Below, in pieces: positions 1,690 through 34,491 of a stretch of DNA of 64,000 nucleotides (position 1 is its first letter; each line of letters opens with the position of its first letter). Source of the stretch: an uncultured Verrucomicrobiae bacterium. Lineage in GTDB: Bacteria; Verrucomicrobiota; Verrucomicrobiia; Chthoniobacterales; Chthoniobacteraceae. Made by a program: the position numbers and the translations under genes. Below the pieces are notes generated by a model. The model was not told the origin of the DNA. It saw only the letters and a list, made by a program, of their open reading frames with translations, and searched no databases. The stretch is from contig CAWIKF010000002.1 in NCBI GenBank assembly GCA_963836755.1, positions 800,001 through 864,000 on the forward strand, read 5' to 3'.

Positions 1690-1762
1690 GGGGTCTTAGC
1701 TCAGTTGGTAGAGCGCCTCAATGGCATTGAGGAGGTCAGGGGTTCGAACCCCCTAGGCTCCA
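1690..1762 (+). tRNA. tRNA-Ala(GGC)
   Basis: Acceptor stem GGGGTCT/AGGCTCC-A with G3:U70; D-arm AGCTCAGTTGGTAGAGC; anticodon arm CCTCA-AT-GGC-AT-TGAGG; T-loop GGTTCGAACC. 73 nt, CCA not encoded. Confidence 0.97.
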
Positions 1763-3244
1763 TTCCCTTTTTGTTATTTCTTTAGAGGAGGGCAGGTAAC
1801 AGAGATCGATGGAAATCTCGTCTTTCTCGATCACGATTTTGTTTGTGATGCACTCCACGATTCTTCGTTTTTCTTCCCGATCCAAATGGGGCCAACGGGC
1901 TTGCAAATCGTGGGCATCGTTCATCACCTGCTCGCTTGAAAACGTATTGATTTTGAGGAAATCGATTTCGGCTTGGAGCCGTGGCATTTCCTCTTCGAGT
2001 TGTTTTTGACGTTCCTCAAGCGGCTTGAAAAATTTGCCGAACGCCTCGCCGGTGATTTGATTTTTGAGATAGAGTTGATACGTCCGATCAATCTCTTGTC
2101 GGGTTTTCTCCGCCTCCTTTTTGCGCGATTCGAGGAGTCGTTGTTTGTCATCGAGCGTGTCGGCGGCGCGATTGAGGAATGCGTTGATCTCGCCCGGTGA
2201 AATCAAAAAGCCGTTCAATTGCTCGAAAAAAATCCGCTCCAAATCGTCGGTAGGGATTTTGGATCGGCAGGCGCTGCAAACGTATTTTGCACTATTCGTC
2301 GGCACATACATTTTTTCGCCGCATCCGCAAAAAACCAAACCGGCGAAAAGATGAGCCACGCGTTTTGCGGGCCGGTTCACCGGGCGCGAAGACGGTTCGA
2401 GAAGTTGATTGCACTGGTTCCATAGTTCTTCGGAAATGAGCGGTTTCACTTCCGTGAAAACCCATTCGGATTCCGGCTTGAATTCCCATGCAGTGCCATC
2501 GTTCGCACGCCGCGAGTAATTTGTCCGATGAAGCCCCTTGGCGGTCGTATCTTGGATAAGGCGGCCTATCGTCGTTCCACAAAACTTCGCTCCATTGCGC
2601 GTCCGGTAGCCAGCGCGATTGAGATGATTCGCAACGGCCTTTTTCCGACGCAATTCAAGAAAAAGCTCATACATCATTTTGCGGATCGCGCTTTCATCGG
2701 GATGGGGCATAAGTTTTTTGTCCTTCCACTGGTAGCCATAGGGAGCGGCACCGCCGAGCGGCTTACCGAGCTTTGCCCGGATCGGGACCGATGCGATGAC
2801 ACGTTCGGTGATTTCTTCGCGCTCCCATTGCGCCATTGCCGCAATCATCGTGTAAAACAGGCGACCGGCAGGCGTTGAAGTATCAATTGATTCCTGGAGC
2901 GATACCAAGTCGGCATCGCACGAGCGAAAAATGTCGGCGAAATCCAAAAGCTCTCTCGTATTGCGAGCAAGGCGGGCGAGCTTTGAGAATATGAGCGCGC
3001 TAATATGCCCGCCGCGAATGTCCGCAAGCATCCGCTGTGTTTCGGGATGCTGTGACACGAGTTTGCCGCTCACTCCCTCCAAATGGTAAACCTCTATGAC
3101 CGTCCAACCTTTTACCTCGGCGTAATAACGCGCGCGTCGCTCGTGGTGTTCAGGACTCTCCCCTCTCGCTTGGTCTTCCGTCGAAACCCGAATCCAAATT
3201 CCGACGGATTTTTGAATTTCACTACCATTGTGTGAGGTTTTCAT
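1736..3244 (-). CDS. Large serine recombinase (island integrase)
   Basis: Catalytic WIRVSTEDQ, SKLARLARN, STPAGRLFYTMIAAMAQWERE, recombinase domain APYGY, zinc ribbon LFAGLVFCGCG...YVCSAC, then a coiled coil. Confidence 0.93.
   Translation of the reverse strand: MKTSHNGSEIQKSVGIWIRVSTEDQARGESPEHHERRARYYAEVKGWTVIEVYHLEGVSGKLVSQHPETQRMLADIRGGHISALIFSKLARLARNTRELLDFADIFRSCDADLVSLQESIDTSTPAGRLFYTMIAAMAQWEREEITERVIASVPIRAKLGKPLGGAAPYGYQWKDKKLMPHPDESAIRKMMYELFLELRRKKAVANHLNRAGYRTRNGAKFCGTTIGRLIQDTTAKGLHRTNYSRRANDGTAWEFKPESEWVFTEVKPLISEELWNQCNQLLEPSSRPVNRPAKRVAHLFAGLVFCGCGEKMYVPTNSAKYVCSACRSKIPTDDLERIFFEQLNGFLISPGEINAFLNRAADTLDDKQRLLESRKKEAEKTRQEIDRTYQLYLKNQITGEAFGKFFKPLEERQKQLEEEMPRLQAEIDFLKINTFSSEQVMNDAHDLQARWPHLDREEKRRIVECITNKIVIEKDEISIDLCYLPSSKEITKREWSLGGSNP
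1745..1762 (+). repeat. attL core (tRNA 3' end)
   Basis: CGAACCCCCTAGGCTCCA matches 34474-34491 at 16/18 positions; the last 10 bp (CTAGGCTCCA) are identical. Confidence 0.8.
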
Positions 3245-3264
3245 TGCTTGCAGGATTTACTTTT

Positions 3265-3310
3265 ATGTGACACATCAAAAGACAGCACGCAAGCATTATT
3301 TGTGACACAG
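3265..3310. promoter_or_regulatory. Putative operator repeats TGTGACACA between the integrase and the small regulator
   Basis: ATGTGACACAT (3265-3275, near-palindrome) and TTGTGACACAG (3300-3310) lie in the divergent region. Confidence 0.4.
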
Positions 3311-3487
3311 AAAAGAAAACCGGAACGAGGTCGCCCAAAACTGCCCAAAGCAGAATCGCGTTCCGTTTTTATTTCCACCCGACTTTCGCCGGAGGAATAT
3401 CAGGAAATTGCAAAAGCCATCCGCAAGAGCGGTAAGAAAAAGTCGGATTGGCTGCGTGAGGCGCTTTTCGAGAAAGCAAAAGATTAA
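3302..3487 (+). CDS. Small ribbon-helix-helix-like DNA-binding protein
   Basis: RGRPKLP AT-hook-like motif, then ISTRLSPEEYQEIAKAIRKSGKKKSDWLREAL. GTG start chosen inside ORF 3248..3487. Confidence 0.65.
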   Translation: MTQKRKPERGRPKLPKAESRSVFISTRLSPEEYQEIAKAIRKSGKKKSDWLREALFEKAKD

Positions 3488-3594
3488 AGCAGTTCGAATT
3501 GCAGCGAGAATTATTTTGGTTTTTGCTGCTGACTGGAACAGCAAGAGCCAAGCTTTTTCGAAAGTCGTGAGCGCACAGCGAGCCTAAGACGAGG

Positions 3595-4353
3595 CTATCT
3601 CTTCTTACCCTTCGCCTTTGCTACTTTCTTGGGCTTATTAGCGGCTTCTTCGGCGTGTGCGATCGATGATCCCGCTTCAGGCAAAAGGAGTTTGTGAAAA
3701 TGCTCCAAATTTTTCTGTGTCACCCATTCGTGGATTTGGGCGTCTTTGAGAAAGTGTCCACCGTATAACGAGACGAAAACACTTAGACCGAAGGACACGA
3801 AGTCATTCGCCGACAAGACAAATGAGGGCTGGTCCTCCGGGATTGCGGCGAGGTCACTCTCCGGACCATTCAAGGCTATTCCATTCCGTCCAAAAGTCCG
3901 AATCGGCTGCGCATGGAAAAACGAGTGCCGTGCTTGATCATCAGAGAGCTTTTTGGCTGGCAGACCTTCAGGGGTTTCGAATCGGTAGCCGAGGTAACGA
4001 AGTCCCGAAGAAACACGAAAGCCGAGAGCCACTTGGATACTGATTTTCGGGACAGGAATCGTTTTGCACGTTAAGTCTGCGGAAAAGGTTATTACCGGTT
4101 GGAGTTTCACTCCCTTATGGATTGGATTTAGCAAGAGAAAGCGTTCTGTATCTGCCAAGTCAGTATGTTTGTTTTCCCCCGAGGGAATATATTTCCGGAA
4201 AGTCTGTTGCTCAATTCGTGGAAATCGTTCCGAAACCTCAGTTAGTAGAGATTTCTCCTCCCCCGAAAGATTGTCCACCAACGCTTTGTGCGTTTTTTCT
4301 ACCCCTTCCAACAAATTGCCAAACCCTGTCACTTCTTCCCAGTTTAAATTCAT
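3595..4353 (-). CDS. Hypothetical protein, last gene of the kinase-receiver cluster
   Basis: 252 aa ORF starting 6 bp after the receiver gene; motif GYRFETPEG...HSFFHAQP. Confidence 0.75.
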   Translation of the reverse strand: MNLNWEEVTGFGNLLEGVEKTHKALVDNLSGEEKSLLTEVSERFPRIEQQTFRKYIPSGENKHTDLADTERFLLLNPIHKGVKLQPVITFSADLTCKTIPVPKISIQVALGFRVSSGLRYLGYRFETPEGLPAKKLSDDQARHSFFHAQPIRTFGRNGIALNGPESDLAAIPEDQPSFVLSANDFVSFGLSVFVSLYGGHFLKDAQIHEWVTQKNLEHFHKLLLPEAGSSIAHAEEAANKPKKVAKAKGKKR

Positions 4354-4359
4354 CCGATT

Positions 4360-5601
4360 TTAAAGGGCGAGCTTCATCTCGGGTGAATAATCGACTCCGT
4401 CGAGTCTTTTGATGAACCGCCTTGCATAAGTTCCAGGGGTGTCCGCCGAGAATTCGTGACATTCTTTATTTAGCACGAACGCCGAAACATCTTCACAGAA
4501 TCGAGAATCTAATTCTGCTTTTTTCCATGGTTCTTTGACCTCGATGATCTCATTACGTGAACGAACTTCGTCCCAAAACCATGCGGGGCGTGACAACCAA
4601 TCCACGGCTTTGTAACGGCAGTCTTTGATGTGCCGTTCATCTATTGAGATGTCTGCTGGATGGCCGAGTTGGCAGGTTGAATTTAAATCCTTCCGGGTTG
4701 GTTTGGGCTTTCCCTTGAGGAGGCTCGGAAACCGGCCAATGAGATGTGGTGCGTCTACCAAGATCCCTTGACCGCCAAGAACCAAACGCTCCAGCCATTT
4801 TCCAACTCGCGCGGAGGCAATTCGCGGAGCGTATGGATTGTTTGTTCCCTTCTGATCCTTCACTTCGAGACCATGCTGTGACTTCATCAAAAAGTCGGCG
4901 AAGGTCACTTTCGCTACGTCCTCCACCTTCTTACTCCAAGGCGCCAACCATTGCAGGACTTCGATTGGCATGACGCTCGGCAGTTTGTGCGGTAACTCAA
5001 GGTGATCGAAAATAGATACTTCAAGACCAACCTTGGCGAGTTTTGTAATGCGCCGTTCGAAACAGTCGATTGCATCTGGCATGAGTGGCCAATGCCAAGG
5101 GCGATAGCCATTCCACTCGTTCATCCAGAGTCCACGATTAAGAAGTTCTTTGAATCCAAGGTTGAGGTCTGCAAAAGAGCGGGGATGCCCGCAGAGGGTC
5201 AGGTCAAATAAGGGTTGGCCGGCCACGTTAAATTGATTCAAGGCGATGATGAGACCGCATTCGCTAAAACAGCGAGCGAGATAGGCTACGCGTTCTCCGG
5301 TCGGCACTCCTCCTTTGGAATCGAGCAAGTTGGCAAGATCGTAGTCAACGACCAAGATATCGGCGGGGTCAAAAATCTGCGAACGATCCTTCGGTAGATG
5401 GGCATTCTCGCGAATCGCTCGTTGACGTCCCTCAAGAACTTGCAGATCGCAAATGAACTCCGACGGTAGACACGGTATGACTTCGAAGGCTTGCTTAACC
5501 GGAGGAAGCTTTTCAAGTTGCTCTTTCAGACGAGTGGTAAAGTTCCCTTCATCGTCGAGAATGAATATTTTTCTTTTTTTGGATGGTAGTTTCTTAGTCA
5601 T
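4360..5601 (-). CDS. Receiver (REC)-like domain protein with long uncharacterised C-terminus
   Basis: KIFILDDE acidic pocket and DILVVDYDL phosphoacceptor strand; lies directly downstream of the kinase. Confidence 0.75.
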   Translation of the reverse strand: MTKKLPSKKRKIFILDDEGNFTTRLKEQLEKLPPVKQAFEVIPCLPSEFICDLQVLEGRQRAIRENAHLPKDRSQIFDPADILVVDYDLANLLDSKGGVPTGERVAYLARCFSECGLIIALNQFNVAGQPLFDLTLCGHPRSFADLNLGFKELLNRGLWMNEWNGYRPWHWPLMPDAIDCFERRITKLAKVGLEVSIFDHLELPHKLPSVMPIEVLQWLAPWSKKVEDVAKVTFADFLMKSQHGLEVKDQKGTNNPYAPRIASARVGKWLERLVLGGQGILVDAPHLIGRFPSLLKGKPKPTRKDLNSTCQLGHPADISIDERHIKDCRYKAVDWLSRPAWFWDEVRSRNEIIEVKEPWKKAELDSRFCEDVSAFVLNKECHEFSADTPGTYARRFIKRLDGVDYSPEMKLAL

Positions 5602-5641
5602 TGGTGGCGCTCCATTGCATACAAATGCTGTCTTGAATTGA

Positions 5642-7855
5642 TTAAGCGACGCGATCTTCCGTGCTAGTCCAGCTCAAACGGAAAGCAGTTTTGAATCCCG
5701 GTTCAGGCTCGATGAAAGCGACCTTACAGCCGAGGTTGACAGCCAGCATTCGCACAATGGTCAGCCCCAACCCCATTCCGCCGTAGCCCATTTCTTCACG
5801 GTCGCGAGAGAGTTTTAGTTTGCGAACAAACGGCGTGAACAGCTCGTCGGCCGATTTAAGGTTTACGCCAATCCCTGTGTCCTGCACGAGGAGTGAAATG
5901 GTCTTGCCACTGATACGCGATGATACTTTGATCTCGCGCGTCGCACTTTCGAGCATCGCGTTGGCAGCGTTCAGAAACACGTTTTGGAGGATGGCGCTCC
6001 ACTCGGCAAATGCTCCGAACGGAAGACGCAATTCTGGATCTACCTCTTCAGAATCAACAGGAATTCCACGCAATAGCAGCGAGGTTTGACGCTTCACGGA
6101 TTCCACGACTACTCTGGCCCTCAGTGGAGCGCGTCTATCCCTGTTGTCTCGGTCGGAGACGTTCAGAAACAGGGCACGAAGGCTCCTAGCCATATCTAGC
6201 CATTCCGAGAGCCCGCCAACAATCTGGGCAAGCTTAGATTGAGCTTTGGGTTCTCGAACATCAAGTTCTCCAAGATCCTCCACGTGTGCTTCGAGCTGCC
6301 GAAACTGCTTATTGAGTTCGTGTTGGAATGCCAGCGCCGAGATGCCGGCGGTAGCAAGGGTGCCAAGCAGGTTAGATTGGCTTAGACGTTCTTCGGTTTC
6401 CTCGTCCACGGCCATAACGGCCTCGCGCACATTCTTCTGTAGTTCTCGGTAAGCTTTTGGTTCCAGTTGATCTTTGACTACCTCGATCAACTGTTCGACG
6501 CGCTCGAACTTTTCTCGCGCCGGTTCGGAGAACGCCGTGAGTTTCTTTTCCTCGAAAACACGAAGCTTTTCCCGAGTCGCATAGAATTCCACCGCCCAAC
6601 GGACGATCTTATAGACACTTTCGTAGGCCAAATTCTCGACAAGACGATCTCTGGTAATTTGTATTTGAAGATGCTCGTTCTCAACCGTGTGACCGCGCAG
6701 GTGAGCGCTCTCCCGTTCGAAACCTGTATCGAGATTCACCACGCCAAGCATTCGAGATTTTGTCGGAAGATATTCCATTCCTCCTGAAACCTGAAGTTCT
6801 TCAGGTAGCAAATCCGCCCGCGATAGGCGATGTGCGTGAGACATTTCCACGCCGAGCCAATCATGCGCATTGCCGTAGTAAGGAAGGCGAAACCCGGCGT
6901 CATAAATATGAACGCCGCCATACTCGTTTAAATACTCACGCGCATCGTCAACCGGTATACCCATTTTTTGTCGATGAACTAAATGATAGATACGAATCTC
7001 AAACGAGATCGATTCGATGGCACAATTTTTCTGTTCATACTTCTGTAAGACGGTTTGCCCGTCGTCCCACTCAATACTGATTTGAATTTCTGCAGTTCCA
7101 TCCGCTCGTTTTCTCTCCAATTGACCGACGATCTGTGCGTAGTGGAGCCGAGTGATCGCTCCCATGAGCGTTTCGAAGCGGGCTTGCGCCACAGAATCGC
7201 CAGTCTGGAAATCGACGTGAAAAGCTTTCTGGCGGTCAGTCTCAAGTCGTGGGTTGGGGCGAAAGGGTGGCTGAAGAACCCATATTTCCTTGGCGAGGGC
7301 AGCGACCTCATCCGCCGCCCAATGTTGCTTTAATCGGGCGAGGATGATGCGTGTCCCGTGTTTTGAGTTGCCAGGATAGAGGTTTCTTCTCGGGCGAGAA
7401 TCGCAATCGACTGTGGCTTGAGTCAGGTCGCCTGCGTTGTTCGCTTCATCCCAATTCACCTTTCCCACAAACTCGCGCTCGTCATCGGATTCTGCGACCG
7501 TATGGATGTCTAAATCGTGAGCAAGAAATTGTCCGGCAAGCCGTCCAACACCTTTCGATCCCGTCAACGGTCGCCTCAGATTCCGTGATACGGATTGACG
7601 AATCTTATGCGGCGACCCGATACGCATCCAAAAATCGTCAAACTCTTTTCCTGTCATTCCGTGCCCATTATCCGCCACTTCAACAAGATCTTCGTCGATC
7701 TTAATTGTAACATTTGTCGCGTCGGCGTCGTAAGCGTTTTTTACGAGTTCTGCGAGGGCAATGTGAGGTTTCCCAACAAGGCGTTCGCCGAGTTCTCGAA
7801 GAAGAGCGGAATCAACTTTGAACTTTAATTGCTGCACCAATACTGAAATTGCCAA
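5642..7855 (-). CDS. GHKL/MORC-type ATPase fused to a histidine kinase
   Basis: N-terminal ELVKNAYDADA, DNGHGM, GSKGVGRLA, GTRI. C-terminal H-box AFQHEL, N-box NVFLNAANA, DTGIG, LFTPF, GMGLGL. Confidence 0.88.
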   Translation of the reverse strand: MAISVLVQQLKFKVDSALLRELGERLVGKPHIALAELVKNAYDADATNVTIKIDEDLVEVADNGHGMTGKEFDDFWMRIGSPHKIRQSVSRNLRRPLTGSKGVGRLAGQFLAHDLDIHTVAESDDEREFVGKVNWDEANNAGDLTQATVDCDSRPRRNLYPGNSKHGTRIILARLKQHWAADEVAALAKEIWVLQPPFRPNPRLETDRQKAFHVDFQTGDSVAQARFETLMGAITRLHYAQIVGQLERKRADGTAEIQISIEWDDGQTVLQKYEQKNCAIESISFEIRIYHLVHRQKMGIPVDDAREYLNEYGGVHIYDAGFRLPYYGNAHDWLGVEMSHAHRLSRADLLPEELQVSGGMEYLPTKSRMLGVVNLDTGFERESAHLRGHTVENEHLQIQITRDRLVENLAYESVYKIVRWAVEFYATREKLRVFEEKKLTAFSEPAREKFERVEQLIEVVKDQLEPKAYRELQKNVREAVMAVDEETEERLSQSNLLGTLATAGISALAFQHELNKQFRQLEAHVEDLGELDVREPKAQSKLAQIVGGLSEWLDMARSLRALFLNVSDRDNRDRRAPLRARVVVESVKRQTSLLLRGIPVDSEEVDPELRLPFGAFAEWSAILQNVFLNAANAMLESATREIKVSSRISGKTISLLVQDTGIGVNLKSADELFTPFVRKLKLSRDREEMGYGGMGLGLTIVRMLAVNLGCKVAFIEPEPGFKTAFRLSWTSTEDRVA

Positions 7856-7885
7856 TCATTAATCGATTCGTCGAACTTTTATCTC

Positions 7886-8347
7886 ATGTCTCATAACCAA
7901 TCCGCTCGGCCAGTTGCATCGTCGCCCGAAGTTCGACGCAGGATGCAACGGGTGCGCCAGCGAGATACAGATATTGAACTGGCACTTCGCTCGACGCTGC
8001 ATCGCATGGGTTTACGCTTCCGTGTTCAACGCCAATTGTTACCGGCTTTTCGTCGAAAGGCCGACATAGTCTTCGTGAAAGCACGTGTTGTTGTCTTTGT
8101 GGATGGCTGTTTCTGGCATGGTTGCCCTCGACACGGAACACAGCCCAAGATCAATAGGATTTGGTGGTGCAAAAAAATCGCTGCGAATGTGCAACGTGAT
8201 CGCGACACGGACAAGAAACTCAAGGCTGCCAAGTGGTGTGTTATCCGCGTTTGGGAACACGAATCGACTGGCGCCGCCGCTCAACGGGTGCTCGTTGCTG
8301 TTAGCAACCGCAGCGAGCAGATGTCTTCAAGGAACTCATCCTTGTGA
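7886..8347 (+). CDS. vsr: Very short patch repair endonuclease
   Basis: RRRMQRVRQRDTDIE, ADIVF, VFVDGCFWHGCP, WCKKIAANVQRD, IRVWEHE. Confidence 0.93.
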   Translation: MSHNQSARPVASSPEVRRRMQRVRQRDTDIELALRSTLHRMGLRFRVQRQLLPAFRRKADIVFVKARVVVFVDGCFWHGCPRHGTQPKINRIWWCKKIAANVQRDRDTDKKLKAAKWCVIRVWEHESTGAAAQRVLVAVSNRSEQMSSRNSSL

Positions 8348-9497
8348 CATGAGCTTCCAATGTCGTGAGCAAAATGGGCGCTGGTTTCAACTGACTCTTC
8401 AGAAGGCGTTGGAATACGCCCATTGTGGCCCTGTAGGAAAGTGGAGTCGGTTTGAATCTGAGGAATTCATGCAGTGGCCGAAATTTTCTCTCCACAGGGA
8501 AATTCCCAACCGATGCGATGTAGCGCTTTCCATCCCGACCATAAGCCGCGTTCGGCCAAGGTGGTGTGCAGAGTGGTTTTAGATTTTCGTCTGTGAATCG
8601 GCCGGGATTCGCAAGGCGGCGTCCAAGCCATTCGGTAACCCGCACGTTGACTGCGTTACCCACAAGACGCCACCTACTGCGATGATTTCCCGCTTTCGCT
8701 GCGGGGGCTGTCCAAAACTCCGGGAATCCCTGCAAGCGCTCTGCGTCACAAAGATGAGGTGTCGCGATCCCTCCACTGGGCAGGATCATGGCCGGAGCCG
8801 ATGGGATGCCAAGCCCAGATCCCCCTTTAAGCGCCGGGATGGCGTCGCACGCCCAGCCAATACCACGATTGCCTTCAGTCCAATAGAAGCCGAATGAAGA
8901 AGCAGCAACATCATCGATATCAGTCTGATTGCTATCATCCGCTAGAAGCACATCGCACGGGTCGAGTGTCTTGCTGCCAAAAAGGAAGACTCGAGGGCGG
9001 CGTTGCGGCAGACCAAATGCCTGCGCGTCAACGATGCGATATGCCCAGTCGTATTCCAGCTGTTCGAGCTGATCAACGAGGGATTCGATGGCGATGCCTC
9101 GATTGAGACGGAGCATAAAAGGAACATTTTCGAAAAGCACATTCGCAGGCTTTGATTTTCGAATCAAACGGAAGACTTCCCACACCAATCCTGAATTTGT
9201 CCCCCAAATTCCCGCTGTCCGCCCAGCCTGACTCAGATCTTGGCACGGAAATCCAGCTGTTATCAAGGAAACGCCTTGTGGAATGGAACGCAAAGCGCAG
9301 ACATCACTTTCAAGACGTAATTCCGGAAATCGCGTTCGTAGAACGGTTGTTGCTTCTGGGTTGTTTTCGCACGCAAGAACTAAGTTGTGCCCGGCGCGAC
9401 GCAGCCCCAGTTCAAAGCCCCCAATGCCCGAAAATATACTGGCAACATACAAACCTGAATTTTTTGGTTTGATTCGTGGACGAATGTGCTGGGGCAT
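8301..9497 (-). CDS. DNA cytosine-5 methyltransferase (Dcm family)
   Basis: Motif I FSGIGG, IV AGFPCQDLS, VI FENVP, VIII PQRRPRVF, IX ERLQGFP, X GNAV. Start uncertain; the ORF extends to 9611. Confidence 0.93.
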   Translation of the reverse strand: MPQHIRPRIKPKNSGLYVASIFSGIGGFELGLRRAGHNLVLACENNPEATTVLRTRFPELRLESDVCALRSIPQGVSLITAGFPCQDLSQAGRTAGIWGTNSGLVWEVFRLIRKSKPANVLFENVPFMLRLNRGIAIESLVDQLEQLEYDWAYRIVDAQAFGLPQRRPRVFLFGSKTLDPCDVLLADDSNQTDIDDVAASSFGFYWTEGNRGIGWACDAIPALKGGSGLGIPSAPAMILPSGGIATPHLCDAERLQGFPEFWTAPAAKAGNHRSRWRLVGNAVNVRVTEWLGRRLANPGRFTDENLKPLCTPPWPNAAYGRDGKRYIASVGNFPVERKFRPLHEFLRFKPTPLSYRATMGVFQRLLKSQLKPAPILLTTLEAHVTRMSSLKTSARCGC

Positions 9498-9683
9498 TTC
9501 ATGGGTGTTTAATGCCCAGTTGCACAAAACTCGAGAGAAATCTTGATTCCATAATTCCCATTCGAGTTCGTGAATATTTCTAACAACCGATCGACATTCA
9601 CAAGCTTCCAAAATCTATGCTGATACGCAGCATATTATCTGCTCTTCCTCGCCACTTAGTTCGTGTTCTAGTATCAATTTACT

Positions 9684-21473: not shown

Positions 21474-22427
21474 TTACGCAGCCAACGACAGACTCTCATT
21501 GATGGCAAATTGGAGCTGCTTTTCAGCGTAGTCTTTCAGTTCTGGGCGACTCAATTTCGTATAGTGTGCAATCGTTGTGGGTGTGCTATGCCCTACAAGT
21601 TGCGCAATGATTGCGTCTGGCACGCCGAGCTTTGCCAATCTGTGAATGAAGGCATGTCGAAACGAATGCGGGCAAAGTTTGCGGATCAGTCCCGCGCGTT
21701 GAAACGCTACTTTAAAAGAGCGTTCCACAGTGCGGTTCCCAATCGGTTTGCTCGTGCGCAAGCATTTGGTGATGAACAACGCGTCTATGTCAACTGGCCC
21801 ATTGTTAACTCTATCAACAAGATACTGTTGAAGAACGTCGTCTGTGCCTGTGTTCCAAAAGACCCGCCTGCTGCGCATTGTCTTTTCCGTGCGGATTACT
21901 GCCGAACGATCCTCTTGAATATCTTCGATTTCCAAACTTAGAAGTTCCCCGAGACGCATCCCTGTATCATGCAGAAGCATAATCATCGCGAGATCACGAA
22001 GGTTCGCGGGCTTCCTCATTCGCAGCGTTGTCACTACCTGTTGATATTCCGCTTCTGTAATGGCTTCGTGTGATCGAGCGAATCCGCGTGGCACACGGGC
22101 TAAGTATAGCGGAAACCGCAATCTTCCCTGTTCTGCAAAAAAACGGAGATAATTATGGACTACATTTAGTGCGAGTTCGACTCCACACGGAGCATGTTTC
22201 TTGTAAAGAGTGTTTGCGAATGCCACATAATCGGTATGACGCAGAGCCTCCGGTGGTTTGTTCACAAATTCTTGGAATCGCTTAACCCAAATTCGATACA
22301 CTTGATAAGCTTTCGCTGTGTATGATTGTTTCCACGCAAGATACTCGTGGATAAGATCATCATTGCTCGATGAAGTGAGAAGTGAATCGTCGAGAGATGG
22401 ACGATGCACTTGAAAGGTGTGGTTCAT
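21474..22427 (-). CDS. Tyrosine recombinase/integrase
   Basis: DTGMRLGELL (R), RTEKT (K), HSFRH, LVGH, IAHY: all catalytic residues are present. Confidence 0.92.
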   Translation of the reverse strand: MNHTFQVHRPSLDDSLLTSSSNDDLIHEYLAWKQSYTAKAYQVYRIWVKRFQEFVNKPPEALRHTDYVAFANTLYKKHAPCGVELALNVVHNYLRFFAEQGRLRFPLYLARVPRGFARSHEAITEAEYQQVVTTLRMRKPANLRDLAMIMLLHDTGMRLGELLSLEIEDIQEDRSAVIRTEKTMRSRRVFWNTGTDDVLQQYLVDRVNNGPVDIDALFITKCLRTSKPIGNRTVERSFKVAFQRAGLIRKLCPHSFRHAFIHRLAKLGVPDAIIAQLVGHSTPTTIAHYTKLSRPELKDYAEKQLQFAINESLSLAA

Positions 22428-22684
22428 GGTTTTGTTTGTTAACTGATAAGAACCGAAGAAGCCGCCGAACAAAGAATTGCTGATACCACAAAACTAAACG
22501 CAACCAAAATGCGCAGACCAACTGGCTCCCTCTCGTGCGACCACAAAATACCTTCATCATAGTAGTGACGCCGCAAAGCGTGCGGTGCAGGCAACGTGAA
22601 TTGCGGGCTAACAGAGTATCGACATACTCACCTTACAACCCTATGACCTCATAAACTGTCAATGTGCTCACCTGCACATTAGGG

Positions 22685-24152: not shown

Positions 24153-24341
24153 ATGAATACAAAACAAACCGTCAATATGACAAATCGGATGCCTAACGTC
24201 AGGATTGATGCGTCTGGCGACAACATCGTCTGTGACCCTTTTGAAAGGGTTATCAGGGTTGACGCTTCTGGCGACAAGATCGTATGTGATCCTCTCGAAG
24301 AGGACATCCGAGTTGACGCATCTCAGGCAGCAAAACTTTGA
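24153..24341 (+). CDS. Small tandem-repeat peptide (62 aa)
   Basis: RIDASGDNIVCDPFERVI / RVDASGDKIVCDPLEEDI / RVDAS; the 54-bp repeats differ mostly at synonymous sites. Confidence 0.7.
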   Translation: MNTKQTVNMTNRMPNVRIDASGDNIVCDPFERVIRVDASGDKIVCDPLEEDIRVDASQAAKL

Positions 24342-26650: not shown

Positions 26651-26956
26651 CTTTCGTCGATCCGCAAGGCCGTTTCACAGACAATATTCCTGTGGGAAAA
26701 CATTTTTTGCCCCATAAATGCTCTTATTCACATTGAGCGAGACGTTTATTGCTGCTTTGACCTTTCGTCTGAACGTTGCGACTATTCTGACAGGTTGCAT
26801 GCTTGCCCCTAAAGCAATGGTATCTAACGGTCACATGCTGCCAAGTCATTCATATTCGGCGTCTTTATGGCATTCTGTGAAGCTCGTCGGTGTTCTGTTG
26901 GCAGATGCATTCACCAGCTATTAGACCCTAACAAGATTATGCGTTCTTTCCAGTGA

Positions 26957-28234
26957 ATGCGCATCCGACATGGTAATTTGTGCTGGAATTGTGGTAGACT
27001 CTACCTTGTGAATGCAAAATCAGGCATTTCAAAAATACAACAGTCGCCAAAACAACAGTTCCTGGCGAGCCTCGACTCATGTTTTCGAGATGGCTCATTT
27101 ATTAAGCTAACACTCGGTCACCGGGCGGTTCCTGAGAATATGTTGCGAAAATTGCTTGTTCGGCCCGTGCTGATTCGCGGAGAAAAGCGGTGCAGCGTCG
27201 TGAGCCGATTTCTCACACGAGACGAAACGAAGAATCACCCGTTTAGCGATACGCTTGCACTCGTAGAAGCAAAGCTTGGAACGGAGTTCCTAAGTGCAAA
27301 TCTCTTTACCGAGTCCAGTGGCGTGGAGCTCGAATTGGGAAAGAAGGATCGATTAAGGGTGATTTCCGTCAAACGAAAACCGGCGTCTTTGGATCACGAC
27401 CGGAGCCGAATGCGCTGGATTGATACAAGCGCACATTATCTCAATTCTCTCGAAGTTACAGATTCATTAGGTAAGGTGCGCGAACGGAAGAGGAGCAAGT
27501 TTCGTCAAATTGAGCGCTTCGTGGATTTGCTGGCCTCAGCCTTCCGCCACAGCAGATTGGCGACATTTCCCATCACTCCACGGGCCATTCCGATCACAAT
27601 GTGCGATATGGGATCAGGCAAAGGGTATCTTACTTTTGCCGCGTTTGACTATTTTAAGCGTGTCGAGAAAATTGAGGCACTAATCACGGGGGTAGAGTCG
27701 CGCGACGACCTCGTCAAACTATGCAATAACGTGGCTATCGATTGTGGATTCAGCGGCCTTAATTTTGTGCGGAGCTCGATAGAAGAGTATAAGTTTCCAA
27801 GGCTCGATATCCTGGTTGCGCTTCACGCCTGCGATATCGCCACGGATGATGCACTCTTCAGTGGGATAAGCGCGGGAGCAGAAATCATTTTGTCGGCTCC
27901 GTGCTGCCACAAAGAAGCGCGACCACAGATCGGTCGCTTCGTCGCACACGGTCCTTTGCGCGATATACTTCGCAACGGCATTTTTGCCGAACGCCATGCT
28001 GATATGGCTACAGATGCAATTCGTCAACTCATCCTTGAACGTGAAGGATATCGTGTAACGGTTAGTGAGTTTGTGGCAGCGGAACATACAGCCAAGAACG
28101 TGATGCTAATAGCCACCAAAAGAAGCGAAGTGCTCACAGATGATGCAAAAGCGGACATTGATCATCGCATTGCAGAACTAAAGAATTTTTATGGCATCGA
28201 ACACCATAGACTCGAACAGCTTTTCATGGCCTGA
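26957..28234 (+). CDS. SAM-dependent methyltransferase
   Basis: KFRQIERF, DMGSGKGYLTF, VALHACDIATD, APCCH, HTAKN. Confidence 0.85.
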   Translation: MRIRHGNLCWNCGRLYLVNAKSGISKIQQSPKQQFLASLDSCFRDGSFIKLTLGHRAVPENMLRKLLVRPVLIRGEKRCSVVSRFLTRDETKNHPFSDTLALVEAKLGTEFLSANLFTESSGVELELGKKDRLRVISVKRKPASLDHDRSRMRWIDTSAHYLNSLEVTDSLGKVRERKRSKFRQIERFVDLLASAFRHSRLATFPITPRAIPITMCDMGSGKGYLTFAAFDYFKRVEKIEALITGVESRDDLVKLCNNVAIDCGFSGLNFVRSSIEEYKFPRLDILVALHACDIATDDALFSGISAGAEIILSAPCCHKEARPQIGRFVAHGPLRDILRNGIFAERHADMATDAIRQLILEREGYRVTVSEFVAAEHTAKNVMLIATKRSEVLTDDAKADIDHRIAELKNFYGIEHHRLEQLFMA

Positions 28235-29228
28235 TGTGGATTGGAATGCGCTACGTCGCCTGCGCGCTCGCTTCCTCCAATTTGATCAAAGTGAAGGCAA
28301 TTTTGGTAATTCGGTTGTATCGCCCGATCGCTCGGACTACTGGCGAACTCCCGCCGAACTTGATAACTATAATTTAACCTTTGGCGAGCGGATTGGTTGG
28401 AAGTGGGACACAGTGCTTGCAGAACTCAAGACGAGAGGCTGGACGCCTCCTGTAGGCACAGTCTTGGATTGGGGCTGCGGCACCGGCGTGGCTGGGCGAC
28501 GTATAGTCGAAGCATGGCCTACTGCCGTTCGCACACTTTTCCTATGGGATCGTTCAAATCTTGCAGTGCAGTTTGCCGAGAAGCGCGCGCGCCAGACTTT
28601 TCCGCATCTCGATTCAAGACGCGCTACAGGAGACACGGTTTCTGATCTGCTTGTCATTAGTCATGTGATCAACGAACTTTCCCAAGTAGCGCTGAAACGC
28701 CTGCTTGCTTTGGTGGAAAAAGCGCAAGCTGTGTTGTGGGTTGAGCCGGGCACATCGGCAGTTAGCCGCAAGCTTATCGCTATGCGCGAAGGACTACTCC
28801 GGCGCTTTCGTGTCATTGCTCCCTGCACTCATTCGATGACATGTGGCATGTTGAGCGCAGAGAACAAGAGGCATTGGTGCCATCATTTTGCGAAGATTCC
28901 GGGATACGTGCATACTGACTCAGGTTGGAGGCGGTTTTCTGCGACACTGGAGATTGACCTCTGCACTCTTCCGTTTAGTTTTCTCGTCCTCGATCGGCGA
29001 CCTGCTGTTACAAACTCCGAGCGAGAAGTGGCACGTGTCATCGGTAAACCCCGCCATTACAAGGGGTTTGCGAAAGTGTTGAGTTGCCAGAGTGTCGGTG
29101 TTCGTGAACTCACAATTCAAAAACGCGACACACCACAGCTTCTGAAAGAAATAAAAAAAGCCCCATCGTCACTCTACCGATGGGAGCGGGAGGGGGATAA
29201 GATAATGGGAGGCATTCGTCTGTTTTAG
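28191..29228 (+). CDS. Rsm22-family methyltransferase-like protein
   Basis: LDWGCGTG, SHVINEL, VEPGT, IAPCTH...C...WCHHF. Confidence 0.8.
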   Translation: MASNTIDSNSFSWPDVDWNALRRLRARFLQFDQSEGNFGNSVVSPDRSDYWRTPAELDNYNLTFGERIGWKWDTVLAELKTRGWTPPVGTVLDWGCGTGVAGRRIVEAWPTAVRTLFLWDRSNLAVQFAEKRARQTFPHLDSRRATGDTVSDLLVISHVINELSQVALKRLLALVEKAQAVLWVEPGTSAVSRKLIAMREGLLRRFRVIAPCTHSMTCGMLSAENKRHWCHHFAKIPGYVHTDSGWRRFSATLEIDLCTLPFSFLVLDRRPAVTNSEREVARVIGKPRHYKGFAKVLSCQSVGVRELTIQKRDTPQLLKEIKKAPSSLYRWEREGDKIMGGIRLF

Positions 29229-29542
29229 TATCTTTCAATGAGATTTTTGATTTTCGGGGAAGTTGATCTAACGAACTTGTAACGCGCACTTGTAACGAAG
29301 CCCTTGCTTATTACATTTGTCTCGATAACAAACGTCGGCGAATCGAAATCCGGGAAAAAATCCGGGAGAATGAGTCGCTTCGCGGTATAATTATAGTGGA
29401 GATAGTTACCGAAGACTGAAGTCTTCGGATTTCGGCGACAGCCTCGATTGCCTACCCGACTCGAAAACACGCCGCATGTCGGCAGTTTTTCCGCGCTACA
29501 ACAAGGCGGCGCGGGATGCGGAATGGAGGTCGTCCCTGAAAT

Positions 29543-30832
29543 ATGCCATCACATCAATTCATCCACCTTGGCTTGCGCCAAGGGTGGGGCGGCGTGCAGT
29601 CGCCCTTTCATATCTCCTACGAAGCTTTGCGCAGGCATCTTTATATTGTCGGAAAAACAGGCACCGGAAAAACCAGCCTGCTTAAAAGCATTTTTTTGCA
29701 ATTGGTGGAGCGGGAACACGGAGTCGCTTTGCTTGATCCACACGGAGACCTCGCCGAAGAGTTGCTCGATCTGCTGCCGCCACGACTGGTTTCAAAAATC
29801 GTGTTTTTCAAACCAAGCGATCTTGCCTTCCCTTTCGCCTGGAACATACTGGCCGAGGTTCCGCTTGATGAGCGCCCTCGCACTGCAAGCGGTATCGTCT
29901 CGGCGTTCAAACATGTTTGGGGTGAATCGTGGGGGCCGCGTCTTGAATACATTCTCTACAACAGCATCCGTGCATTACTCGATGCCGAGCACACGAGTAT
30001 TCTTGGCCTTCCCAAGATGCTCACCAATGCCGCTTATCGACAATGGGTAGTGCGACAGGTCAAAGACCCGTTTGTGACTGCCTTTTGGCAGGAAGAATTC
30101 GAGAGTTACGATCAACGGTTTCGGCAGGAAGCGATTGCCCCAATACAGAATAAAGTAGGCGCACTCACTACCAATCCAGTGCTTCGCAATGTCTTCGGGC
30201 AGGCAAAGCGGAAGCTCGACATTCCTTTCATCATGAATAGCGGGCGCATCTTCATCGCGAATTTGTCGAAAGGGGCGATCGGCGAAGAGCCCTCAAATCT
30301 TATCGGTTCACTTCTTGTATCAGAGTTTCAGCGTGCGGCGATGCAGCGCGGATTGCAGTCGGAGCAGGAGCGCCGAGACTTCACACTCATCATTGACGAG
30401 TTTCAAAACTTCACCACCGGAGCGTTTACCTCAATTCTCTCCGAAGCACGGAAGTTTAATCTTTCACTTGTCTTGTCACATCAATTCACCAGCCAGCTTG
30501 AGCCGGATATTAGCGATGCAGTTTTTGGCAATGTCGGCACGTCCGTAGCCTTTCAGCTTGGCGCAACGGACGCCGACCTCATGGCGAAGGAGTATGGAGA
30601 TGCTTTTGCTGCGAGTCAGTTTGTTGATCTTGAGCGCTTTCATACGCTCGTGAAGCCGTCGAAAGTGGACGGTTGGGCACAACCTTTTCGCGGCAGAACA
30701 GAATCAGTCATTAAGTCGCCGACTCATGCCAGGGAAACCTTCGTTCGAGAATCGCGGCAGCGTTTCGGCAAAGAGCGCGTGAAGGTTGAAGATAAAATAC
30801 GACGCTGGATGAAGCGATGGAGTGATGAGTAG
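29543..30832 (+). CDS. Second coupling-protein-like (VirD4/TraG-type) ATPase
   Basis: RHLYIVGKTGTGKT, LLDPHGDL, WGPRLE, IIDEFQNF, SEARKFNLSLVLSHQ. Confidence 0.85.
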   Translation: MPSHQFIHLGLRQGWGGVQSPFHISYEALRRHLYIVGKTGTGKTSLLKSIFLQLVEREHGVALLDPHGDLAEELLDLLPPRLVSKIVFFKPSDLAFPFAWNILAEVPLDERPRTASGIVSAFKHVWGESWGPRLEYILYNSIRALLDAEHTSILGLPKMLTNAAYRQWVVRQVKDPFVTAFWQEEFESYDQRFRQEAIAPIQNKVGALTTNPVLRNVFGQAKRKLDIPFIMNSGRIFIANLSKGAIGEEPSNLIGSLLVSEFQRAAMQRGLQSEQERRDFTLIIDEFQNFTTGAFTSILSEARKFNLSLVLSHQFTSQLEPDISDAVFGNVGTSVAFQLGATDADLMAKEYGDAFAASQFVDLERFHTLVKPSKVDGWAQPFRGRTESVIKSPTHARETFVRESRQRFGKERVKVEDKIRRWMKRWSDE

Positions 30833-30847
30833 TGGTATAATTAAGCG

Positions 30848-31744
30848 GTGAAGATAAACGTAGCCCGGAGGCCACGTTTTCAGCGTCTCTTAGAGTCGCC
30901 AACCATCCGCCTCACCGACCGGGACAAGGCGATTCTTTCGGCTGTAGTGGAATATCGGTTTCTGACCACAAGCCTTATCCTTTTACTTGTAACGGGTAGC
31001 AAACAAAACATCCGTCGCCGATTACAGCGTTTGTATCACGCTGGATTTCTTGACCGACCAAGAGCGCAGTTGCCGCTTCGTTACGCAGGCGAGCTTTTCG
31101 ATTTTGTATATTCGTCAACGCGCAAGACTCTCTCCCCCGCACTCGCCTTCTCAAGAAGAACGGTTTCGGGTAAGGAATCTAAGAAAGTCTCTTCCCTCTT
31201 TCTGGCTCATGCGCTCTCAGTATCCGAGGCACAAATTCGCATCAGAGTGCTATGTCTTTTGCACGGCTTAGCCTTCATTTCACAACATGAGATCGTGAGC
31301 GCCGGACAGCACGAGGATTCAGCCGGGCATTTACACTGGAGAGTCGCTCTGAAAGCAGACAAGACGACAGAAAACGTCGGCGTCATTCCCGATGCCGTAT
31401 TTTCGATTGAACAGCAGGAGCTTTCAGGCGAGAAGCGTCGCCTCTATTATTTTCTGGAAGCAGATCGAGGCACCATGCCTCTTTATCGGAAGAGCCTTCG
31501 TTTATCTTCGATCCGTCGAAAGACACTTTCTTATTTACGAAGCCGGAGAATGAAATTGTTGAAGGAGCATTACAATATCCCAGGTTTCCAAGTGCTCTTT
31601 GTAGCCCGAACAACGGAGCGCCTTGAACGAATCAAGGAAGTATGCACGGCGGCAACAGATTGTCACAGTTCTTCTCTCTTTCTCTTTACTACGCAAGATG
31701 AGCTACAAGCGGGCAACCTACCACCAAGTCTCGGCATGGTATAA
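30848..31744 (+). CDS. Replication-relaxation (Replic_Relax) family protein
   Basis: LTDRDKAIL...YRFLTT...RRLQRL wHTH, FLAHAL, IPDAVF, FLEADRGT. Confidence 0.8.
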   Translation: MKINVARRPRFQRLLESPTIRLTDRDKAILSAVVEYRFLTTSLILLLVTGSKQNIRRRLQRLYHAGFLDRPRAQLPLRYAGELFDFVYSSTRKTLSPALAFSRRTVSGKESKKVSSLFLAHALSVSEAQIRIRVLCLLHGLAFISQHEIVSAGQHEDSAGHLHWRVALKADKTTENVGVIPDAVFSIEQQELSGEKRRLYYFLEADRGTMPLYRKSLRLSSIRRKTLSYLRSRRMKLLKEHYNIPGFQVLFVARTTERLERIKEVCTAATDCHSSSLFLFTTQDELQAGNLPPSLGMV

Positions 31745-31812
31745 TTGTAGTGATCCGTTGCACACTCCGTGCGACACACTCTAACCCTTTAACTACAAGG
31801 AGGTAGTTCTTT

Positions 31813-32874
31813 ATGCCTACTGCAAAATCTGCGTGGGTTGATTTCAAAGAAATCAAAGCAAAAGTTTCCATCGTTCAAATTCTTGAGCGATATGGCGTCA
31901 TCGAAACGCTTGTCAAAAGTGGAAATGGCGACCGTTTGAGCGGTGCATGTCCGATCCACGGCGGCACCAACAAAACGCATTTCCGCGTGAGCATTTCCAA
32001 AAATTGCTGGAACTGTTTCGGAAAATGTCAGGATGGCGGCAACATTATCGACTTTGTGACTAGAAAAGAGGAAGTCCCATTTCGCGATGCGGCGATACTC
32101 ATTCAGGAGTGGTTTATGGGCGGGCAAAGCGAGACGGAAAACAAAGCCGAAAGGTCGCTTTTTGCGACGAGCCAGGTGGAAGAAGGGCCACGGTTCCGCA
32201 GAGCGGAAATGCAGAGTGAGCCGCAACCAGAGGAAGATGAAGACAATTCACCGAACAAGCCGCTTGCGTTCGAGTTAACGAAGCTCGACATAACGCACCC
32301 GTATTTGCGGGAGCGTGGTTTGACGGACGAGACGATTGCAACCTTTGGACTTGGCTATTGTGAGAAAGGATTGCTACGTGGATACGTCGCCATTCCGATT
32401 CACAGTCCAGACGGCGAGCTTGTTGCCTATGCTGGACGTTGGCCGGGTGTGCCGAAGGACGGCAAAGGTAAATACAAATTGCCGCAGGGGTTTAAGAAAA
32501 GTGTCGAGCTTTTCAACTATCACCGTGCCATAGCAAGCAGGGACCAAGTCCCCATCGTTGTTGTTGAAGGATTTTTTGACGCGATGAAGCTTCACCAAGC
32601 GGGCTATGAGCGAGGAGTTGCACTCATGGGTTCGTCACTTTCCGAGACACAGGAAGAATTGCTGTGCCGACTCTCTGAGACGGACGAGCGAATCATTCTC
32701 TTTTTTGACGGTGACGATGCAGGGCGCAAGGGACAGGCGGACGCTATGGAGCGTCTGTCGAAAAGGCTTTATGTGCGCACCATTGAGCTTGGAGAACAGC
32801 AGGTGCAGCCAGAGGATGTGTCGGTTGACGATCTGACTTACATGCTTCCTTTTCAAAACGGGAGGGTTGCATGA
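31813..32874 (+). CDS. CHC2 zinc finger + TOPRIM DNA primase
   Basis: CPIHGG...WNCFGKC, YLRERGL, GRW, VVEGFFD, FFDGDDAG. Confidence 0.88.
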   Translation: MPTAKSAWVDFKEIKAKVSIVQILERYGVIETLVKSGNGDRLSGACPIHGGTNKTHFRVSISKNCWNCFGKCQDGGNIIDFVTRKEEVPFRDAAILIQEWFMGGQSETENKAERSLFATSQVEEGPRFRRAEMQSEPQPEEDEDNSPNKPLAFELTKLDITHPYLRERGLTDETIATFGLGYCEKGLLRGYVAIPIHSPDGELVAYAGRWPGVPKDGKGKYKLPQGFKKSVELFNYHRAIASRDQVPIVVVEGFFDAMKLHQAGYERGVALMGSSLSETQEELLCRLSETDERIILFFDGDDAGRKGQADAMERLSKRLYVRTIELGEQQVQPEDVSVDDLTYMLPFQNGRVA

Positions 32875-32931
32875 ATTTTCGTGTAGCAAACGCCTATGTG
32901 GAAATGAGACAGAAGGGAGGCCGATAACGCC

Positions 32932-33190
32932 ATGCCTTCCATTTCCAAATTTCCGCTTTGCACCATCTGCGCCACACCACACGCTCTTGAGTCCTTGGAG
33001 GCAACTGAAATCCAGTTTGCCATTTCCCGACACGTATCCGGCGATTGGGGCATCGTCAATGACGAGGATGGCGAAGCAAACGAACGAGCGCCTGTTTTCG
33101 GTTTTTCGTTCCGAAGCAGGTAAAAAGTTCTATGTAATCACCGAGTAGGATAGATCGGTTACAACCGTTCTACTCCCGGAAGATTATTGA
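32932..33190 (+). pseudogene. Decayed small plasmid-associated protein
   Basis: ATPHAL...RHVSGDWG...ANE, then a frameshift to LFSVFRSEAGKKFYVITE-TAG-DRSVTTVLLPEDY. Confidence 0.65.
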
Positions 33191-33197
33191 AAATCAA

Positions 33198-33225
33198 AAC
33201 ACCTTTTCCGAGAGGAGAAGGTGTT
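33198..33225. terminator. Hairpin between convergent genes
   Basis: AACACCTTTTCC-GAGA-GGAGAAGGTGTT. Confidence 0.6.
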
Positions 33226-33240
33226 ATTTCTTATTAGAAA

Positions 33241-33444
33241 TTATTTTGACGGAGAATTGATCGAGTAATCGAGTGCAACGAAAGCCGTGCCTACCGACTC
33301 CGCAACAGCGGCATGGGTCTCGCCATCTTCATTGTGAGCTTCGGCTACGTGCAGACAGCGGCCTACGCGATCATCAAGACGAACATGCTGCCACGACCAG
33401 CCTAACTCGCACAATTTCTCTGCAATGCGATGCCACTTTTTCAT
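33241..33444 (-). CDS. Small hypothetical protein
   Basis: 67 aa ORF MKKWHRIAEKLCELGWSW, ending at the terminator. Confidence 0.5.
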   Translation of the reverse strand: MKKWHRIAEKLCELGWSWQHVRLDDRVGRCLHVAEAHNEDGETHAAVAESVGTAFVALDYSINSPSK

Positions 33445-33584
33445 ACCGCAAAAATATACTACGAGTCAGGAAAAAAAAGACAATTGTGCTGACAACGCTG
33501 ATGCGACTCTTGCTGCGATTGGATGGATTGATTCAGGGTGTAAAAGATGATTGACATTCTTTTCACCGGTGCCACATTGGCACC

Positions 33585-33866
33585 ATGCCAGCAATCGCTG
33601 AAAAAAATGCGCGCCTTGTCACCCGCATTCCTGCCAGCGTGCGAAAGATCATCAAGGCTGCCGCTGATCTCCAAGGTTCCGCTCTCAATCAGTTCGTTGT
33701 GCAGGCCGCCTACCAGCAAGCACGGGAGGTTCTGGAGCACGAATCGCTTATTCGGCTCAACCACGAACAGACGAAGCGCGTGTTTGAATTGCTCGACAAG
33801 CCGCCAAAACCAAACGCGGCATTGATGGCTGCAAAATCAACACACCGCAGCCTGGTCCGTGCTTAG
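33585..33866 (+). CDS. DUF1778 RHH antitoxin (TacA/AtaR-like)
   Basis: ARLVTRIP...AAADLQGSALNQFVVQAA...LLDKPPKPNAAL; overlaps the GNAT gene. Confidence 0.88.
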   Translation: MPAIAEKNARLVTRIPASVRKIIKAAADLQGSALNQFVVQAAYQQAREVLEHESLIRLNHEQTKRVFELLDKPPKPNAALMAAKSTHRSLVRA

Positions 33867-34365
33867 AGTCGAATTGTTGGACGCAACGCACGACCGTGCA
33901 GGTTTTGACTGCGGAGTCGAGCCGCTGAATCGTTATATTCAACAAATTGCACGGCAGCATATCACGAAGGAAATTTCCAAAACCTACGTGCTCGTGGAGG
34001 AATCCGCCGTTGCCCCAAAACCAGTGCTTGGCTTTTTCACCCTCTCGCTCTGCCAAGTGATCGGGCAGGAAGTGCCCCAAAAATGGATGAAAAAGCTTCC
34101 CGAGCAGATTCCCGCGATGAAGCTTGGCCGTCTGGCAGTGGCTACGCAACAGCAAGGTCGCGGATTCGGCAAAACGCTGCTCGTAGAAACACTCCTCAAA
34201 GTCGCACAGGTCGCGGACATTGCCGGCGGGATCGGGCTTTTTGTGGATGCGAAGGATGAAAGCGCTGCCACATTTTATGCGCGCTTCGGCTTTGAACCGA
34301 CGCCCACTGCCCCGCTGAGACTGTTCATGCCGATGGAGACGGTCAGACAATTTGTGAAAGCGTAA
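33859..34365 (+). CDS. GNAT acetyltransferase toxin (TacT/AtaT-like)
   Basis: HDRAGFDCGVEPLN, LGRLAV...QGRGFG, VDAKDESAATFYARFGF. Confidence 0.9.
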   Translation: MLRVELLDATHDRAGFDCGVEPLNRYIQQIARQHITKEISKTYVLVEESAVAPKPVLGFFTLSLCQVIGQEVPQKWMKKLPEQIPAMKLGRLAVATQQQGRGFGKTLLVETLLKVAQVADIAGGIGLFVDAKDESAATFYARFGFEPTPTAPLRLFMPMETVRQFVKA

Positions 34366-34473
34366 TTGGTGCGCTTAACAAAATGGTCACGGAACGGCGT
34401 TCATTCTCTGTAATTTGCCATGCACCGGCGAGCGTTTTTTCGGCGTTTTGAACCGCAAATAGCAAAATGGAAG

Positions 34474-34491
34474 CGAACGCGCTAGGCTCCA
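34474..34491 (+). repeat. attR core
   Basis: CGAACGCGCTAGGCTCCA, a copy of the tRNA-Ala 3' end located at the GC-content transition. Confidence 0.8.

Follow-up and report, generated by a model that had tools for sequence, protein, structure and literature searches.

The window analysed here is a stretch of 64,000 nt (contig CAWIKF010000002.1, positions 800,001–864,000 of the forward strand, assembly GCA_963836755.1) from an uncultured Verrucomicrobiae bacterium (GTDB Verrucomicrobiota; Verrucomicrobiia; Chthoniobacterales; Chthoniobacteraceae). It contains a 32.7-kb island at 1753–34491 that is flanked by a 10-bp direct repeat and carries a gene for a large serine recombinase (LSR), hereafter the integrase. 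The repeat, CTAGGCTCCA, lies at 1753–1762 (attL core) and 34482–34491 (attR core), with no further copy in the 3.18-Mb genome. About 0.12 further copies of a 10-bp core would occur in 64 kb by chance, and taken by itself the repeat is therefore weak evidence; the limits of the island are backed by a drop in GC content (0.45–0.51 between the core copies versus about 0.58 outside), by dyad symmetry in the predicted attP and by 53 metagenome loci that have the same attR motif and were found in a pattern search for the attR arm.

The target of integration is a tRNA-Ala(GGC) gene (1690–1762, plus strand), which ARAGORN returns as the sole tRNA or tmRNA gene in the window (no tmRNA was found) and to which the att core contributes the 3' acceptor strand. 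On the minus strand the attL core specifies integrase codons W-S-L, and the ten bases thus do triple duty, in the acceptor stem of the tRNA, as att core and as three codons. The integrase gene (1736–3244, minus strand) encodes 502 aa in the integrated state and ends WSL-GGSNP, with its stop codon inside tRNA-Ala, antisense to the T arm; the open reading frame (ORF) and the ARAGORN call agree in this with the initial annotation, which had described the same ending. Pfam finds Resolvase (E 1.5e-30), Recombinase (4e-14) and Zn-ribbon (2.6e-5) domains, the last at 24.9 bits, just below its cut-off of 25.3, and with the coiled coil this is the domain set of an LSR. Scores of 125, 98 and 97 bits against the NCBIfam models for CcrB, CcrC and XisF (cut-offs 900, 900 and 375) are far too low for a staphylococcal cassette chromosome (SCC) recombinase or XisF. 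The closest named relative is 74% identical, uses the same tRNA and belongs to a Chthoniobacteraceae genome whose loci are given below under G030.

When the two ends are joined at the repeat to rebuild the predicted attP, the integrase frame runs on to 528 aa. A 31-aa tail with eight K/R and no D/E residues replaces the 5-residue end, exactly the exchange that had been claimed, with the stop at 34389–34387 (tail and stop together at 34387–34482, minus strand, joined to the integrase only at attP); the product is identical for any crossover within the shared 10 bp. Within these coordinates the tail comprises a strand motif (codons 4–12), a basic patch and an end, about its last third, that overlaps a second half-site described below as site II. 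The dyad symmetry of attP peaks about core bases 1–2 (16/30), which places the predicted crossover dinucleotide at 1753–1754. Its two arms are identical at 16/25 positions, a level equalled at only 5 other places of 65,408, and such a pseudo-palindrome about a central dinucleotide (here 1753–1754) is a mark of LSR attP sites. The P arm (1755–1779, plus strand) lies within the integrase coding sequence, and the P' arm (34457–34481, minus strand) encodes the first eight tail codons. A matrix trained on P' arms only, the P arm not being part of the training set, ranks the P arm highest in the 64 kb (27.5 bits), followed by the P' arm (23.1), site II (16.7) and a next match of 10.5 bits.

Scans for promoters and terminators near both island ends gave matches at chance level only, and the antisense overlap of integrase and tRNA is established as geometry only. 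In a same-genus genome (locus L135, G001:C177) the start of a P arm directly follows tRNA-Ala with no integrase there, which is likely a scar left by the same family. Viral contigs contain neither a relative of the integrase nor the attR motif, and a prophage reading of the island is thus unsupported there.

Integrase tails in the comM and tRNA lineages

Among 8,000 scored candidates 5,864 are related to the integrase at E <= 1e-30. The close relatives are about 60–65% identical and most of them use a Cys-codon site in comM; the antisense of the comM motif MNPCPCG forms the end of most of the 80 loci fetched. Some relatives are natural fusions in which an LPFC-type motif leads in frame into a double XRE helix-turn-helix (HTH) module (five among the best 120 proteins, nine among the 80 loci), and a search with the HTH tail region returned 30 long proteins, 29 of which have a Recombinase domain. 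An HTH-tail profile was run on 50 of the 80 genomes and matched in 41, in some weakly. From the 30 tail loci returned we dropped one without a recognisable attL and five without a piece of comM beside the tail, and the crossover for the remaining 24 was set from the comM Cys codon alone. Every one of these 24 rebuilds reads in frame into an HTH tail of 138–237 aa (20 by pattern and four by eye), where attL and tail were paired by genome, not always by contig, and the pairs are kin. In four of the 24 the junction falls in another codon phase and the tail is shifted to match. The distance from crossover to LPFC is three codons in the window and in the comM relatives alike. The in-frame rebuilds and the natural fusions together indicate that this family is built to have its attP within the integrase gene and to regain the tail on the circle alone.

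Several acidobacterial comM islands carry two to four near-identical HTH tails that lie 4–13 kb apart; each of the tails follows an att-like junction, and the stretches between them are free of integrases (G092:C4 123149–145770; G089:C41 15418–27168; G099:C57 62867–72206; G109:C17 4817–18037). These are possibly stacked, non-autonomous cassettes, any of which could supply a tail. The antisense of the tRNA T arm, G-G/D-S-N-P (1740–1754), resembles the comM antisense R/T-D/G-S-W beside the crossover, a likeness that may explain the change of target.

Among the best 120 proteins, 21 have ends of the tRNA-Ala/Asp antisense type. A quick tree of 54 rows, which is midpoint-rooted and does not itself prove the order of events, places the 13 included rows of this type in a single clade (SH-aLRT 100). 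For the tails of this subclade we combined the 53 attR-motif loci with two G030 sites and the window (56 in all); 52 were long enough and 43 remained after removal of near-duplicates, a few degenerate-looking ones among them. None of the 43 reads into an HTH after the short tail, and the HTH-tail profile found no match in the window's own genome (96% complete) or in the three tRNA-Ala/Asp genomes among the 50 searched. A tRNA-Ser relative retains the HTH, and its loss is therefore not tied to tRNA targeting as such.

The subclade tails have a median length of 21 aa (range 16 to >45 aa, with one of 43 stopping at codon 7) and share only about their first 16–20 residues. Their frame is open for 16 or more codons in 42 of 43 distinct tails, compared with 15 and 20 in the other frames, and in codons 8–16 there is one stop where shuffled sequences give a mean of 17.9 and a tree simulation a median of 16. 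Codons 9 and 11 are hydrophobic in 38 and 40 of the 43 tails and codons 12 and 15 are basic in 28 and 32; at these four positions the comM tails agree in 19, 22, 12 and 20 of 24. A profile of the short tails can be aligned, over 16 columns and with a probability of 85%, to the beginning of the HTH tail. A tRNA-Asp relative has the same motif behind four att sites, in one case frameshifted, and beyond the arm there is synonymous spread (AGA/CGA and several Leu codons). These comparisons suggest that the short tail is what remains of a double-HTH module, and we read them as a sign of moderate protein-level selection on some 16–20 of its residues. The conserved frame and the depletion of stops rule out a random remnant as the explanation of the window's tail. 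Most comM tails have TTG as their fourth codon, but 33 of the 43 short ones have TTC or CTC there, for which reason the short tail likely acts only when fused.

The initial annotation had proposed that frame conservation in rebuilt tails be checked, and the two lineages provide it. Its LPFC-type tail is also conserved in frame; LPFC itself is the reverse complement of the integrase-coded att arm, is thus mostly a reading of that arm and was moreover fixed by the attR search pattern, so that we discarded it as proof of protein selection. Its claim of two isoforms is strengthened in that the conserved frame makes both very likely real, with the reservation that the circle form has not been seen in the subclade. 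Stacked att sites with short tails occur in two tRNA-clade relatives (G030:C36 163685–169066 and G067:C2 463768–485420), and one G030 unit keeps only a frameshifted C-terminal stub of the integrase, which creates a natural attP-like junction. Three contig sets from soil runs, compared with 1500–3600, contain no attP junction but leave 1784–2351 uncovered and so are no evidence either way.

Predicted structure, site II and other genes

The model of the integrated isoform shows a complete LSR fold, with long helices at 350–453 and a final beta-hairpin at 467–481; the fold ends near residue 483, and residues 484–502 are predicted to be disordered. For a fused relative, serine integrases give the best structural matches (Z 18.6, root-mean-square deviation 15.6, 458 residues aligned). 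In an AlphaFold model of a natural fusion, residues 504–510 form the sole strand of the tail (predicted local distance difference test score 79) after a disordered linker. Since this strand has no partner within the tail, it is predicted to pack on the terminal beta-sheet of the integrase, a docking predicted from the single-chain model.

Site II (34373–34397, minus strand) is a second P-type half-site that was found with the same matrix; it lies 84 bp from the P' arm, towards the interior of the element, and has no adjoining core. In 26 of 43 subclade tails the best internal match is likewise shifted by 81–85 bp, and a pattern defined post hoc finds the site in 27 of 43, 24 of them at one position. 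It falls in all three reading frames and often past the stop codon, which argues for a DNA element, and the LQ..VP end shared by tails of 31–34 aa is explained by its overlap there. In some tails it reads as an att copy without the central 4 bp, and at 81–85 bp it is found in none of the 24 HTH-bearing comM tails. We consider site II a likely accessory site for the integrase, its rival being an old tandem-insertion scar.

Divergent from the integrase lies a 61-aa ORF for a NikA-like ribbon-helix-helix (RHH) protein (3302–3487, plus strand; Pfam PF21983, E 1.3e-8), a candidate regulator that stands in the same position beside six related integrases of both comM and tRNA type. The initial annotation saw no obvious gene for a recombination directionality factor (RDF) and overlooked this one, which ranks as a candidate regulator and not as a demonstrated RDF. 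A role of the RHH gene as a substitute for the lost HTH is unsupported, because the comM-type loci L083, L084 and L092 carry it too. Between the start of the integrase gene and that of the RHH gene there are two copies (3266–3274 and 3301–3309) of a 9-bp interrupted palindrome, TGTGACACA, which is a candidate operator.

Cargo and transfer genes occupy 3595–34365, as judged by Pfam on 36 selected ORFs (a part of all ORFs) and by NCBIfam on 19 proteins. Restriction-modification and toxin-antitoxin functions are represented among the cargo, and the genes found include an HATPase, a C5 methylase with Vsr, an Eco57I-type methylase with a XamI endonuclease, ArdC, a primase, a TacA-GNAT toxin-antitoxin pair, a Replic_Relax relaxase and two TrwB/VirD4-like ATPases that resemble coupling proteins. 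No type IV secretion system set is present among the ORFs so scanned, and the island is integrative and likely mobilisable. A tyrosine-family recombinase inside it (21477–22472, minus strand) marks a possible nested element, and two tandem 54-bp copies that are 78% alike lie at 24199–24306. To the left of the tRNA, an AcrB-family gene (248–1454, minus strand) is split across several overlapping ORFs, which suggests frameshifts or sequence errors.

Competing explanations for the tail

The geometry of the att sites, the in-frame join, the conserved frame, the natural long forms of the comM lineage and the absence of the HTH in the subclade are observed. Upon these we place a reading to which we give a probability of about 0.5: that the tail, together with site II, biases the long isoform to integration, while the short form excises. 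A serine-integrase gene that contains attP would encode the 528-aa isoform on the excised circle, and the added beta-strand and basic patch would bias this isoform to integration; the integrated copy encodes the bare 502-aa enzyme, which would have to excise. Because each state encodes one isoform, the short form would be the one to recombine attL with attR and the long form attP with attB. The least certain step is that the tail would help the long form to engage attP and site II, 84 bp or eight helical turns away; in the comM relatives this task may fall to the double HTH. A more ambitious form of this proposal, tentative and on balance doubtful, is that direction is set without an RDF by self-editing: a module of 15–20 residues and an accessory half-site would build a synapse competent only for integration, and integration would remove the module and free the bare enzyme to excise. 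The tRNA subclade would then be a minimal version of the comM double-HTH switch.

Several observations weigh against the proposed bias. Solved LSRs stop at residue 477–479 of the fused model, some 20 residues before the junction, and the fold of the integrated isoform is complete, which makes the tail an addition to it. Values of the ratio of nonsynonymous to synonymous polymorphism (pN/pS) are 0.59–0.64 for codons 8–16, where the +1 frame gives 0.68–0.77, and 0.77–1.65 for codons 13–20. The tails are related, so that the counts overstate their independence, and the tree simulation of stops is rough and rests on 45 unaligned bases. No integrase stands beyond the core in any of the 53 attR-motif loci and no excised circle was seen; the tail is missing from all 21 proteins of the tRNA-Ala/Asp type in the best 120 homologs and from the 11 C-terminal matches, and the sole natural junction of the subclade is the frameshifted G030 stub. 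In five relatives no empty attB with the downstream host gene pfkB was found within 1.5 kb of tRNA-Ala. Site II performed poorly on held-out DNA: in a tRNA-Asp genome its best match lies at 81–85 bp in only one of four P'-bearing sites, at 3.1 bits, and one further site II match stands beside a site that has no P' arm.

Some of these points would be expected if the tail were a vestige, an explanation that we hold to be possible though less than probable. A comM ancestor would have had attP overlap its integrase gene and lost the HTH after a move to tRNAs, the remnant being held in place by the att arm, site II and descent; the two isoforms would be equal in action, and direction, as for TnpX, would be determined by other means or not at all. 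RDF-free two-way serine recombinases have been described for integrative and mobilisable elements in the cited part of one source (PMC5704250). The identity of LPFC with the arm, the weak pN/pS, the variable tail length with its one early stop and a fold that is complete without the tail all fit a vestige. It is harder to reconcile with the depletion of stops and the hydrophobic and basic pattern beyond the arm (codons 9–16), with synonymous spread, and with the match of that pattern, position by position, to the distant comM clade. Rather improbable, in our judgement, is a role in regulation and not direction, in which the long form binds site II or the att region and keeps the circle fit for transfer or limits re-excision, the RHH protein controls the integrase, or site II is an ancient tandem scar. 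The conserved RHH gene beside both types of integrase, the lack of a core at site II, the tails that read as an att copy minus 4 bp, and the occurrence of the site in different frames and past stop codons are all in keeping with it. A neutral scar should not hold a spacing of 81–85 bp in 26 of 43 tails despite diverged intervening sequence, as site II does, and the site is missing from the comM tails.

The remaining alternative, that the tail is a signal for stability or remodelling, we consider improbable as well. A host protease or unfoldase would act on the long form, degrading or disassembling it, and the integrase would then not persist after integration. In its favour, the tail is short and basic and follows a predicted disordered linker, and many tails end in K/R-rich triplets that recall the basic ClpX tag of MuA transposase. 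A degradation tag reportedly figures in the study of the BPs repressor as well. That repressor is a known case of regulation by an attP within a gene, according to the passages cited (PMC4557955). The C-terminal residues of the tails are unconserved (AVP, VPF, KKS, RKR and others), and the part that is conserved is an internal strand that leads into a domain of 140 aa in the comM relatives, neither of which is what such a signal predicts.

The biased-isoform reading touches the question of how large serine integrases choose their direction without a known RDF, and these enzymes are major tools of genome engineering. With two natural isoforms that differ by one short tail, the question becomes directly testable. 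Should the tail matter, integrases of this family that are mined from integrated genomes are cloned truncated, and a real accessory site would depart from the picture of LSRs as needing only two sites of about 50 bp. Should the tail do nothing, what is left is an economical overlap of tRNA, att core and codons.

Comparison with known systems

The integrase of phage Mx8 is a tyrosine recombinase. Mx8 and SSV are known examples of an attP that lies within int (PMC6070905 and PMC4383910, in the parts cited here), and in Mx8 integration makes a new 3' end of int that changes specificity without inactivating the enzyme (PMC6070905). The layout of attP within int is thus common to Mx8 and the window; Mx8 differs in being a phage and in its chemistry and att architecture, and Islander, in the passage cited, places its integrase among tyrosine-only integrases (PMC4383910). 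As the integrase of the window is of the serine family, its likeness to the Mx8/SSV class is confined to layout. Closer in chemistry is DsiB of the Dehalococcoides ssrA islands, a serine integrase of about 540 aa whose 3' end always overlaps attL and which, in the section cited, is suggested to be perhaps fully functional only on the circle, or the overlap to be regulatory (McMurdie et al. 2011, PMC3146451). Both systems have a serine integrase overlapping attL at a structural-RNA target. DsiB differs in its tmRNA target and in the second small serine recombinase, DsiA, of its module, and the section cited mentions neither a conserved attP tail nor an HTH fusion nor a second site (PMC3146451). 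A dsiA/parB/mom integration module is not among the 36 window ORFs scanned.

Serine enzymes at tRNA genes are called rare in the relevant passages on phiRSM ORF14 (PMC3816273) and on the AICEs (integrative and conjugative elements of actinomycetes) of Mycobacterium at tRNA-Leu (PMC3218068), and the Islander text of 2014 gives serine integrases at tRNAs as 'not known' (PMC4383910). These systems and the window have in common a serine enzyme and a target at the 3' end of a tRNA gene. phiRSM differs in its small, resolvase-type enzyme and in an attP that lies between genes (PMC3816273), and for neither phiRSM nor the AICEs do the passages cited describe a swap of tails (PMC3816273, PMC3218068). 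With LI/A118, Bxb1 and phiC31 the integrase shares domain order, fold and pseudo-palindromic attP arms of about 25 bp with an outer motif; those enzymes differ in needing a separate RDF for excision (PMC3783163, in the part cited).

The nearest comparison is with the LSR elements at comM; most close relatives of the integrase are among them and have the same register from crossover to tail. Mg-chelatase/comM is the target gene of 12.4% of site-specific integrases (Durrant et al., PMC10083194, passage cited), and in Wolbachia sr1WO genes for HTH_XRE proteins lie at the far end of the prophage (PMC9203015, passage cited); the portions of these main texts cited do not describe an attP inside the recombinase gene (PMC10083194, PMC9203015). 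Our literature search, outside of which lay supplements and subscription journals, returned no HTH or short-tail fusion at an LSR attP and no accessory site in this family. The window departs from the comM elements in that it targets tRNA-Ala and its tail stops after 31 codons without an HTH, and the new points are the loss of the HTH with a minimal tail retained, and site II.

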